Below are positions 30,711 through 32,952 of a stretch of DNA of 64,000 bases, in pieces. A program made the translations under genes and the position numbers. The DNA is from Escherichia phage Elenatom, in sequence record PP925844.1; one strand, written 5' to 3'. Position 1 is the stretch's first letter; every line of letters starts with the position of its first letter. Under the pieces are notes generated by a model. The model was not told the origin of the DNA. It was given only the letters and a program-made list of their open reading frames with translations, and ran no database searches.

Positions 30711-31151
30711 TTAAAAGAGGCTGTTCATTATTCGGTAAAGTGAAGGACCCATCACATATTGCCACTGAGTACGAGGAATAAGAGCAAAAGCATCCATCTC
30801 TGGAATCATAACGCCATCTTTATTTTCAAAATAAGACTCGCAATGGCAATTTCTAAACATCTCATGCTCTACTGGAATCGTATAATAAAATAACTGTAAG
30901 TCTTTATTACTAGAATATTTAAATACACCTAGGTCTTCTAGAAGGTCTGGATTATAATTGCTAAAACCGGTCTCTTCTAAGCATTCTCTTTTTGCAGCTT
31001 CCAGTGCATTCAAATCAGAACTTTCTACGCGGCCCTTTGGAATATCCCAGCGATGTGCCATCATTCCAGGCTTACGAGAACCAGTAACCCGACCCATAAA
31101 TAAATCTTTATCTTCTGTCATAAAGATAATACCAGCTGATAGTGTTTTCAT
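30711..31151 (-). CDS. nudE: Nudix hydrolase NudE
   Basis: Nudix box GRVESSDLNALEAAKRECLEETGF; start placed at ATG giving ATGA overlap. Confidence 0.8.
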   Translation of the reverse strand: MKTLSAGIIFMTEDKDLFMGRVTGSRKPGMMAHRWDIPKGRVESSDLNALEAAKRECLEETGFSNYNPDLLEDLGVFKYSSNKDLQLFYYTIPVEHEMFRNCHCESYFENKDGVMIPEMDAFALIPRTQWQYVMGPSLYRIMNSLF

Positions 31152-31636
31152 TTTAATTTCCTGCATTCAGTGATAAAGTTATTTAAATTTTGAGTATATT
31201 TCTTTTCATCAAAAATCTTTTGCTGCCTACGTAACCGCCATGGCATTTCAATGAACACGCGCCATATTCCTGATAGTATTGCTGCTGTAAAAATATTAAC
31301 AAGTATGGTTAAAAGAGCCCAATCTCCTATTCTATCCATTGGATTTTTTATAAAAAAGTAAAACACAAACGATGATATAGGAAGACTAATGATATACCAC
31401 AGAAGAACCTTCTTATCTGTGAACCAATCAGCATTCGTTAACTTAGCGCGACCGTTTTGAATACATACGAACTTATCATCTGTTACAGTAAATGGCTTAG
31501 CTGCTTGATATCCCATTCTAAACTCCCTAATCAACAAATTTTTCATATCTTCGGAACAACCATTCCAGTCAACTCTATCAACTGAAATGCCATCATCCCC
31601 ATCATCTAAATCATACCAGCGAGTTTTTAAAATCAT
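31148..31636 (-). CDS. Membrane protein, member of tandem family with conserved C-terminal tail
   Basis: 162 aa; TM segments; C-terminus NNFITECRKLK. Confidence 0.5.
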   Translation of the reverse strand: MILKTRWYDLDDGDDGISVDRVDWNGCSEDMKNLLIREFRMGYQAAKPFTVTDDKFVCIQNGRAKLTNADWFTDKKVLLWYIISLPISSFVFYFFIKNPMDRIGDWALLTILVNIFTAAILSGIWRVFIEMPWRLRRQQKIFDEKKYTQNLNNFITECRKLK

Positions 31637-31995
31637 TTAATTTTCCTACAATCACTCACAAACTCTTTCATTGACTCATTTTCAATATAAGACATGTAGC
31701 TATTATATTCTTTTAATTGTATTTTGTAATCTTTTTTTCTTTGCCAATTTATTTTAAAATTATCATAATGAAAATATAAAATGATACCAAAGAATGAAAA
31801 CAATGAAATAATTTTAGTATAACAAAGCTCACTCCAAACTTCTGTTATATTTACTGTGCCGTCGATGTTTAAAATAAGACAGTCAATTAACAATCCAAAA
31901 AGACTACCTGCAAGAGCTGCAGCCAACGCCACAGCAAAAATTAAAAATGACTCAGAAAACGAATATTTGACTTTATTTAGTTTTGGCTTTTGCAT
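31633..31995 (-). CDS. Membrane protein, tandem-family member
   Basis: 120 aa; TM segments; C-terminus KEFVSDCRKIK. Confidence 0.5.
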   Translation of the reverse strand: MQKPKLNKVKYSFSESFLIFAVALAAALAGSLFGLLIDCLILNIDGTVNITEVWSELCYTKIISLFSFFGIILYFHYDNFKINWQRKKDYKIQLKEYNSYMSYIENESMKEFVSDCRKIK

Positions 31996-32390
31996 CGTGA
32001 TTCCTTAACAAATTTCATAATTTCATCAAATTCATACGCAGCAAGTTTAAGCTGATGTTCCTTTTTAATCTTTTTACACTGTGCTTTCCAATCACGTACG
32101 CGTTTACGATAATGCCTTCCTTGATACCAGTATCCTACCCAATTTACGGGTACTAATAAAAGTGGAACTATTAATGGAAGAATTAGCATTAACACAAGTA
32201 TTTCGCCAGAATCAATATCAGTCATAACATCTAAAACACCTCCAATAATCAATAGAATTACAAATGATATGAGTATAACAGGACCTATTAACACATCAGT
32301 AGAAATTATCTGACGCTTTAATTCATACTTCAACGGTTTACTTGGAAGGTATAGTGATGGCTTTGACATATTCTCTACATTCCTTAACAA
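31977..32390 (-). CDS. Membrane protein, tandem-family member
   Basis: 137 aa; TM segments; C-terminus MKFVKESRCKSQN. Confidence 0.5.
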   Translation of the reverse strand: MLRNVENMSKPSLYLPSKPLKYELKRQIISTDVLIGPVILISFVILLIIGGVLDVMTDIDSGEILVLMLILPLIVPLLLVPVNWVGYWYQGRHYRKRVRDWKAQCKKIKKEHQLKLAAYEFDEIMKFVKESRCKSQN

Positions 32391-32952
32391 ATTTTTCTAG
32401 TAATAAATCACTTTCAAAATTGGGATTTTCTACAAATTTATCAAAAAGATCATCAACAATAGTTAAGATATTCTTTTTACTAAGAATACGTTTATTTTCA
32501 TGCTTCGTTTCAGAATCAACTATAAGAGTAAAGAAATATTTCTTGCCCTGAAATTTTACAGTAGTATCAATATAAAATAAATTTGACTTTTGTAAATTAC
32601 GTTTAAACCATGCGTCACTTAAACTATAAACACCGAGATAATCAAAATCGTCGTTTAAATAACAAACCGTCCATTCAGGAGAAATGAAATCAGTAAATTC
32701 AACATCAAAATCACACGTCAATGAATGAATTGATTCAATACTGTTAATGAGTATTCCAGGACGTATTAAAGACTTTTTACCTCTAGAAAATCTTCCGGAA
32801 AGGCTTTCATCAGTTTCATATGAAGACCCCCAATAGTAATTACGTCCTTCTGCCATGCGTTTAAGAGCATTTAGTAATTGGTCTGGAACATCAACCTGTC
32901 TTTGGAACTCTTCAAACATTGAATTGAAATCACTTTGCATTTTCATTTTCAT
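32338..32952 (-). CDS. Hypothetical protein, tandem-family member (no TM)
   Basis: 204 aa; C-terminal EKFVKECREYVKAI. Confidence 0.5.
   Translation of the reverse strand: MKMKMQSDFNSMFEEFQRQVDVPDQLLNALKRMAEGRNYYWGSSYETDESLSGRFSRGKKSLIRPGILINSIESIHSLTCDFDVEFTDFISPEWTVCYLNDDFDYLGVYSLSDAWFKRNLQKSNLFYIDTTVKFQGKKYFFTLIVDSETKHENKRILSKKNILTIVDDLFDKFVENPNFESDLLLEKFVKECREYVKAITIPSK

Follow-up and report, generated by a model that had tools for sequence, protein, structure and literature searches.

The window analyzed here, the whole 64,000-nucleotide (nt) stretch of Escherichia phage Elenatom (PP925844.1, a Tequatrovirus), carries on its minus strand four consecutive overlapping genes whose products all end in F-[IV]-x-[ED]-[CS]-R followed by basic residues. 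Judged by sequence, these genes are T4 e.2, e.3, e.4 and e.5, placed between nudE (e.1) and e.6; the T4 segment from e.5 to nudE is 94.9% identical to the window region, and positions 31148-32952 are at least 90% identical to 504 phage records. Directly before its stop codon e.2 (31148..31636, 162 amino acids (aa)) reads ...NNFITECRKLK (longer tail NLNNFITECRKLK), e.3 (31633..31995, 120 aa, start MQKP) reads ...KEFVSDCRKIK (longer tail ESMKEFVSDCRKIK), e.4 (31977..32369, 130 aa) ends in MKFVKESRCKSQN (tail DEIMKFVKESRCKSQN) and e.5 (32338..32952, 204 aa) in EKFVKECREYVKAITIPSK (tail DLLLEKFVKECREYVKAITIPSK). The true start of e.4 is the ATG giving MSKPS, as in T4, and the T4 annotation starts e.5 two codons downstream, at 32946. 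The core motif is F-I-T-E-C-R in e.2 (residues 154-159, 31160..31177), F-V-S-D-C-R in e.3 (residues 112-117, 31645..31662), F-V-K-E-S-R in e.4 (residues 120-125, 31995..32012), where Ser occupies the position of the Cys, and F-V-K-E-C-R in e.5 (residues 188-193, 32374..32391).

According to hydropathy, e.2, e.3 and e.4 each contain two hydrophobic, putatively transmembrane (TM) segments separated by a short, acidic or neutral loop, and e.5 is soluble, having no such segment. The N- and C-terminal parts of e.2, e.3 and e.4 are rich in Lys and Arg, and by the positive-inside rule both ends of these three proteins are thus probably cytoplasmic. For e.2, hydropathy and Lys/Arg distribution predict a cytoplasmic N-domain of about 75 aa, TM segments at residues ~77-97 and 104-130, and a cytoplasmic tail.

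The tails also carry the start signals of the following genes. The Shine-Dalgarno sequence of nudE (30711..31151, minus strand), which encodes a Nudix hydrolase (Pfam NUDIX, E=3e-13) and is the last cistron with a tail-embedded start, consists of the R-K codons of e.2 (AGG AAA, 31157-31162) ahead of the nudE ATG at 31149-31151. Likewise, the R-K codons of e.3 (AGG AAA, 31642-31647) are the Shine-Dalgarno sequence for the e.2 ATG at 31634-31636, and stop and start overlap as ATGA at both the e.3/e.2 and the e.2/nudE junction. In e.4 it is the K-E codons (AAG GAA, 32001-32006) that serve e.3, whose ATG (31993-31995) lies 19 nt ahead of the e.4 stop, and the K-E codons of e.5 (AAG GAA, 32380-32385) are located 10 nt upstream of the e.4 ATG (32367-32369), which lies 32 nt ahead of the e.5 stop. 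The genes e.5-e.4-e.3-e.2-nudE form a tightly overlapping and probably translationally coupled operon. All four junctions (e.3/e.2, e.2/nudE, e.4/e.3 and e.5/e.4) resemble the ATGA or short-overlap coupling of phage and bacterial operons, but it is unusual that one conserved peptide motif carries these signals at four junctions in a row.

Directly upstream of e.5 lies e.6 (32994..33587, minus strand), a conserved gene for a protein of 197 aa. A strong promoter-like site is found upstream of e.6 (33629-33657; sigma-70-like match in 11/12 positions), and a GC-rich hairpin, GGGGCTTCGGCCCC on the coding strand (32970-32991), separates e.6 from e.5. As a T-run is missing from the coding strand of this hairpin, it probably does not act as a terminator, and together the two features suggest that e.6 through nudE are transcribed as a single early transcript.

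The locus had been described in a first-pass annotation made from the sequence alone, and much of that description holds: the four overlapping reading frames with these C-termini are present, downstream starts lie inside or just after the tails at all four junctions, the fourth product is soluble, and the related C-terminal motif is a real shared feature that aligns in register in profile-profile comparisons. The two to three TM helices given for the first three products were correct as to hydrophobicity, but the number is exactly two in each. The N-terminal regions, which had been called unrelated, are not so throughout, as e.3 and e.4 both start with M-[QS]-K-P, have the same architecture and can be aligned over about 37 columns.

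The pattern F[IVL].[ED][CS]R, drawn up with the tails already seen, had five matches in the 64 kb translated in all six frames, and four of them were the C-termini of the four genes, compared with 0.65 matches in shuffled sequences. The fifth, FINDSR (7936-7953, minus strand; 23 residues from the stop of a 145-aa frame), was missed by the tail profile and was therefore taken as chance. In profile-profile comparison the best local alignment fell on the tail, in register, for all pairs tested (P = 6.5e-5 for e.3-e.4 over 37 columns, 2.5e-4 for e.3-e.2, 0.0035 for e.5-e.2 and 0.019 for e.4-e.2). When only the last 30 residues were compared by the Smith-Waterman method, some pairs were weak. A profile of 26 tails, the four window tails among them, was searched against 3162 open reading frame (ORF) segments from the window and the rest of the T4 genome; it matched only e.2, e.5, e.3 and e.4 (E 1.4e-4 to 0.014), which indicates that in T4-type genomes the family is confined to the locus between e.6 and nudE. 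A second profile built from seven tails of other phages only ranked the four window genes at the top of the window's 911 ORF segments.

The 26 tails were collected from Tequatro-, Mosig-, Gapriver-, Dhaka-, Kanagawa-, Jiaoda-, Karam- and Biquartavirus and from one unclassified phage. In Mosigvirus G53 the orthologs of e.5, e.4 and e.3 (37-54% identity to the window proteins) end in EQFIMECREYVKA..., MEFVKEIRCKSLNS and ...ENFIKECRK, and another protein, of 101 aa and with two hydrophobic segments, has the C-terminus ...ENFIKECRGK. Orthologs of e.2 terminate in ...NSFIEECRK in Gaprivervirus VR7 (33% identity), ...NEFIKECRK in fDHCT2 and DNFIKGCRDGSN in Kanagawavirus KLB31 (25% identity). Throughout the e.2 orthologs, which come from three other genera and the unclassified phage and are 25-48% identical, F154, I155, C158 and R159 are among the few invariant columns.

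The gene e.6 was present in 1106 phage records and led to further members. In loci around e.6 from six more genera besides Mosigvirus, the gene directly after e.6 invariably encodes a motif-bearing soluble protein of 180-262 aa, so that, overall, seven genera besides Tequatrovirus have a soluble protein with the tail in synteny behind e.6. Its tail reads NRFIAECREYAK... in Dhakavirus (dhabil), LDFVDQCRANIK... in Kanagawavirus (Kosakonia 305), DEFIKYCRERVQK in Jiaodavirus (pKp20) and ELFVDYCRRTASKK in Biquartavirus (44RR2.8t); in Pseudotevenvirus (RB43) it is weaker and internal (...EKFIHSCKK...). These e.5-like proteins are connected by a chain of weak similarities and structural matches, and downstream of their genes come hydrophobic proteins with the same tail, in numbers that differ between loci. 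Karamvirus PG7, for instance, has four consecutive tail genes, ending in ...SFIDDCRRARK, EFITECRGKNEIQS, ...NFISKCRTKR and ...NFIQGIRGER, and across genera the number of tail-bearing genes per locus ranges from one to at least five. Several subfamilies can be followed between genera, namely e.2 (window, fDHCT2, VR7 and KLB31), e.3 (window, Mosigvirus G53 and Dhakavirus dhabil), e.4 (window, G53 and Jiaodavirus pKp20) and a further one common to pKp20 and PG7.

Based on these data, e.2-e.5 are very probably an old multigene family of the accessory region between e.6 and nudE in T4-like phages, a family defined by its tail. We propose to describe this superfamily by the motif [LIF]-[END]-x-F-[IV]-x-x-C-R located no more than 15 residues from the stop, which all four window genes display, and by a position downstream of e.6 on the same strand, which was found in the window as well as in the Mosig-, Dhaka-, Kanagawa-, Jiaoda-, Karam- and Biquartavirus loci. 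In PHROG and Pfam, the proteins belong to four separate families to which no function is assigned. Each window protein is a full-length member of its own PHROG (e.2, phrog_2203, 1e-77; e.3, phrog_2330, 1e-58; e.4, phrog_2604, 4e-71; e.5, phrog_2607, 4e-110), and e.3 additionally matches the e.4 family phrog_2604 weakly (E=1e-3) over almost its full length. Near-identical homologs carry PF26896 (e.2), PF26873 (e.4) and PF26876 (e.5), models that were unmatched in our local Pfam copy, and homologs of e.3 carry no Pfam family. The tail is what links the four families, and this link is new, as no database or literature that we searched connects them.

Searches beyond the family returned little. 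Pfam, NCBIfam and PADLOC scans of e.2-e.6 gave sub-threshold chance matches or none, no profile of known anti-phage defence, anti-defence, holin or exclusion families matched e.2-e.5, and structure searches yielded nothing informative. An exhaustive HMMER search with e.5 against 1.84 billion representatives produced six matches, all of them e.5 relatives or fragments except one, a weak hit to an unrelated repeat protein. A profile combining the second TM segment with the tail, run against 5.8 billion proteins, recovered only T4-like phage members already in the family and no new N-domains. Several GenBank labels of homologs had no profile support here, including 'sulfurtransferase' (e.3 and e.4), 'DNA primase' (e.3), 'host specificity protein' (e.6) and, for e.5, 'site-specific RNA endonuclease' and 'phosphoserine phosphatase'.

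Invariant copy number among relatives, which the first-pass annotation had listed as an outcome that would speak against it, was not what we found. In tblastn searches e.2 was detected in 447 Tequatrovirus-level records compared with about 500 for e.3, e.4 and e.5, i.e. about 10% were without e.2. In phage PST, e.2 is removed exactly and a hybrid e.3 tail remains; the sequence is of e.3 type up to GAT and then continues as the e.2-type TGC AGG AAA TTA AAA TGA, which places the crossover inside the tail repeat, at the core motif of e.3. As short DNA repeats, the tails can thus act as occasional crossover points for deletion. Other rearrangements were joined elsewhere. The complete genome of UFV06 retains only e.5 and a chimeric gene in which the N-part of e.4 is fused in frame to the C-part of e.2, joined at an 11-nt near-identity within the first TM segment, outside the tail, and in Shigella phage A2 the N-terminal half of e.5 is fused in mid-gene to the start of e.4 via a short homology that is likewise outside the tail. 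The suggestion that the tail is the recombination point is therefore true of PST and not of UFV06 and A2.

The accompanying suggestions of repeated duplication and cassette exchange fared less well. Since orthologs of e.2, of e.3 and of e.4 occur in other genera, the subfamilies are ancient and not recent duplicates. No new cassette was found at a tail. The sole candidate, P0108 (83 aa; an unrelated soluble N-part joined to an e.2 tail), was rejected as a probable chimeric assembly: its 524-bp contig (L010, an ENA metagenome scaffold) contains about 130 bp of T4-like sequence, namely the e.2 tail and the start of nudE, between unrelated flanks, it turns foreign again inside nudE, and the N-part of P0108 matches no phage record. 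Frameshifts have affected the genes, too. The T4 reference e.2 (L001 2520-2989; T4 67491-67960) differs from the intact 162-aa gene of the window and most relatives by two compensating frameshifts, with the result that it is annotated as a 102-aa stump followed by an unannotated gap before nudE, and frameshifted, tail-less variants of e.3 (97 aa) exist.

The idea that the main role of the tail is that of a recombination linker, comparable to the intergenic promoter-early stem-loop (PeSL) elements but coding, through which cassettes are duplicated, deleted or swapped, is the one envisaged in the first-pass annotation. It gains from the exact e.2 deletion in PST with its crossover within the tail, from the loss of e.2 in one tenth of the Tequatrovirus records, from the varying number of tail genes between genera, and from PeSL-mediated shuffling documented in T4-like phages including PST (PMC2839356, PMC4122927). 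Nevertheless we consider it unlikely as the main role. The DNA shared between tails amounts to just ~20 nt at ~85% identity for e.2 and e.3 and less for the other pairs, the rearrangements in UFV06 and Shigella phage A2 use other short homologies, no cassette insertion at a tail could be verified while the subfamilies are orthologous across genera, and conserved amino acids with diverged codons are the opposite of what a DNA recombination site needs. The linker idea is partly true as a side effect, and the tail is one recombination substrate among several.

PeSL elements lie between genes and combine an AT-rich stretch with -35 and -10 boxes, a stem-loop, a Shine-Dalgarno sequence and an ATG (Arbiol et al. 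2010, PMC2839356; Comeau et al. 2014, PMC4122927). The tails resemble them as short repeats at gene boundaries in variable regions of T4-like phages that take in the next gene's start and its ribosome-binding site, and between two copies of which a gene can be deleted; PeSL shuffling, moreover, was described in PST among others. The Shine-Dalgarno/start end is present at the four junctions, and the tails flank the deletion in PST. In contrast to PeSL, the tail repeats lie within the last 10-17 codons of e.2-e.5 in overlapping genes, none of the promoter- or terminator-like sites listed for the window coincides with the four tails, the predicted folds of the junction RNAs do not differ from those of shuffled sequences, and the repeats are coding, conserved as peptides with diverged codons. 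PeSL is the closest described concept for the recombination aspect, but the tails lack its defining features.

Codon usage in the 26 tails indicates on what level the motif is maintained. Phe is conserved in 25/26 tails, Ile or Val in all 26, Cys in 21 (otherwise Ile, Val or Ser) and Arg in 25. For Arg all six codons are in use (AGA 11, CGT 5, AGG 4, CGA 3, CGC 1, CGG 1), Cys is encoded by TGT (11) or TGC (10) and Phe by TTT (17) or TTC (8). Such a wide spread of codons at conserved residues points to selection on the amino acids, and from the sequences we conclude that this selection keeps the motif beyond the start signals embedded in it.

Double coding does take place. The next ATG follows the Arg codon within ~31 nt in 23/26 tails, so that purine-rich codons inside or just after the motif double as start signals, and the residues past the motif core track the downstream gene. 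For example, the extreme end CKSQN of e.4 is the e.3 start MQKPKL in another reading frame, and in e.5 the residues past EYVKA are variable, whereas the e.4 start that overlaps them, MSKP.LY.PSKP, is conserved. The tail likeness could accordingly be a by-product, with ribosome-binding and start signals forcing similar codons and hence similar residues; Shine-Dalgarno-like AGGAAA, AAGGAA or GAGGAA in R-K or K-E codons and the common ATGA overlaps fit with that, as do the short distances to the next ATG and the behaviour of CKSQN and of the unconserved e.5 end. As an account of the motif core, however, this is largely refuted by the codon data, i.e. the use of all six Arg, both Cys and both Phe codons, and we rate it as very improbable. 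Phe and Ile/Val are located upstream of the ribosome-binding site, and the reading frame of the motif is constant, whereas the next ATG occurs at varying offsets and frames and, depending on the gene, the ribosome-binding site is made up of K-E codons (AAGGAA or GAGGAA) or of R-K codons (AGGAAA). Furthermore, three tails retain the motif without a start within ~31 nt (pKp20 7884-8192, PG7 6882-7235 and 44RR 5627-6415), and Dhakavirus e.5 retains CREYAK though the downstream ATG is 22 nt further away.

The shape of the tail offers a possible reason for selection on its residues. A hydrophobic residue (Leu, Ile or Phe) stands three positions before the Phe in 18/26 tails, and conserved positions i, i+3, i+4 and i+7, followed by the Arg, would together form one face of a predicted amphipathic helix. 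In the AlphaFold2 model of e.5 the tail is a helix (residues 183-198, local predicted local distance difference test (pLDDT) ~70; model pLDDT 62.7, predicted template modelling (pTM) score 0.65), and in that of e.2, a poor model with pLDDT 52, it is part of a long helix extending the second hydrophobic segment. In the e.4 lineage and elsewhere Ser, Ile or Val takes the place of the Cys, which speaks for a small, buried residue at this position and against a role in metal binding (as a ligand) or catalysis (as a nucleophile). Within Tequatrovirus, variable columns are concentrated in the TM segments and the loop, and the cytoplasmic C-terminal part is the most conserved; among 42 cluster representatives of e.2, the last 20 residues contain 2 variable columns compared with 6-7 per 10 in the TM region.

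We tentatively suggest that the tail is a shared cytoplasmic docking helix on membrane-bound and soluble paralogs. The Leu/Phe/Ile-Val/Cys face of the amphipathic helix, together with the Arg, would dock onto a common partner or onto fellow family members and would hold e.5, which is soluble, and the fast-evolving membrane parts together in a single assembly on the inner side of the membrane, where the assembly might serve a dispensable host-interaction role. Several points weigh against docking or weaken the case for it. The paralogs resemble each other weakly and over short stretches (11-39 aligned columns, hhalign probabilities 2-64%), and the structure models are of low to moderate confidence (pLDDT 52 and 63). 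The tolerance for other residues at the Cys position counts against metal binding and catalysis, yet is by itself no proof of docking. The docking partner is hypothetical, e.6 being a candidate by synteny only because it is always next door, and in e.5 the tail helix may do no more than pack against the rest of the same protein. Tail-less variants such as the 97-aa frameshifted e.3 and the truncated e.2 of T4 imply that no single tail is required. Taken as a whole, the tail-defined family together with the docking proposal is the best explanation that we can offer, and the balance is somewhat in its favour.

Another use for a conserved peptide at this place would be regulatory, with the nascent tail pausing translation at the end of its gene, over the start signals of the next. 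Membrane insertion of e.2, e.3 and e.4, or folding of e.5, would then gate translation of the following gene, and the operon would work as a chain of force-sensing couplers. The confinement of amino acid conservation to the last 10-12 residues, whatever the N-terminal architecture, is in line with this, and so is the position of the motif directly over the next start region in 23/26 tails. The distance from the end of the second TM segment to the Arg, ~29-46 residues, falls in the spacing range at which, in arrest-peptide force profiling, membrane insertion pulls on the nascent chain. SecM, MifM and VemP show the same combination of an N-terminal membrane or secretion segment with a C-terminal peptide, conserved in its amino acids, just before the start of the next gene. 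Unlike in those systems, no RNA structure able to hide the ribosome-binding site was significant at the four junctions compared with shuffled sequences (z -0.9 to +1.4), the tails have no sequence resemblance to SecM, MifM, VemP or other known arrest sequences and show a helix-face periodicity, and the motif is also found on soluble e.5-like proteins and in genes without an abutting downstream neighbour. The distance from motif to stop varies as well, from 1 to 15 codons. Neither pausing by the tail nor the gating chain built on it thus seems at all likely to us. Finally, a chance likeness of four C-termini in an AT-rich, lysine-rich genome can be dismissed: some pairwise alignments are non-significant alone (last 30 aa of e.2 and e.4, z = -0.4), but four of the five pattern matches in 64 kb (0.65 expected) are the ends of four adjacent genes, hhalign placed every pair in register on the tail, and syntenic genes of at least eight other genera have the motif at their C-termini as well.

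Regarding function, we consider small early inner-membrane proteins such as the T4 superinfection immunity protein Imm, by analogy, the most likely class for e.2-e.5. Imm, too, is small, early and dispensable, has hydrophobic segments and is encoded in a variable region. In contrast to this general likeness there is no sequence similarity, and the tail profile matched nothing outside e.2-e.5 in T4, the imm and sp regions included. We know of no exclusion or lysis phenotype of e.2-e.5. In T4, e.2-e.6 were classified as 'Non-essential' by transposon mapping with HIDEN-SEQ (10.1101/2025.11.20.689424, supplementary file 7) and as 'Not Fit' in CRISPRi-ART (PMC11879866, supplementary file 15), and both papers list the genes as unknown (10.1101/2025.11.20.689424, PMC11879866). 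Our full-text literature search found e.2-e.5 discussed nowhere beyond gene tables.

T4 is the best-studied large lytic phage, and about half of its genes are without known function. Here, one short, strongly selected C-terminal peptide ties together four T4 genes and their counterparts in other T4-like genera, on membrane-anchored and soluble proteins alike. The motif unites fast-evolving genes that sequence searches keep apart, it exposes spurious GenBank labels, and its 12 residues provide an experimental handle on a possible common partner. Paralogs sharing the tail may mask single-gene phenotypes, which could explain why single knock-downs and insertions were without effect. One short sequence also serves as functional peptide, as start signal of the next gene and, on occasion, as deletion breakpoint.

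Some further observations concern the neighbourhood of the tail genes. The product of e.6 is better conserved than its neighbours (51-89% identity across genera), with two best-conserved blocks of 12 residues each, and had no match in Pfam or in the Protein Data Bank. Its C-terminus was considered as an obvious acidic partner helix and rejected, since other parts of e.6 are better conserved.

In Mosig-, Dhaka-, Kanagawa-, Karam- and Gaprivervirus the membrane genes are closely followed by a second, unrelated tail family that is absent from the window and from T4. It consists of 2-5 tandem soluble proteins (65-105 aa), all of which end in G-x-W-[VIYF]-x-S-S-x-x-C directly before the stop (loci L004 5308-6102, L011 6522-7766, L012 6710-7788, L014 6302-6828 and L006 1-783). 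In addition, a highly conserved 228-aa protein (MNGPKTFNS...EFPMEGW), of which none was seen in the T4-type region, adjoins the e.2 ortholog in VR7, fDHCT2 and KLB31 and the 101-aa tail-bearing protein in Mosigvirus (L006 2740-3426, L007 2722-3408, L008 2743-3429 and L004 8036-8606).

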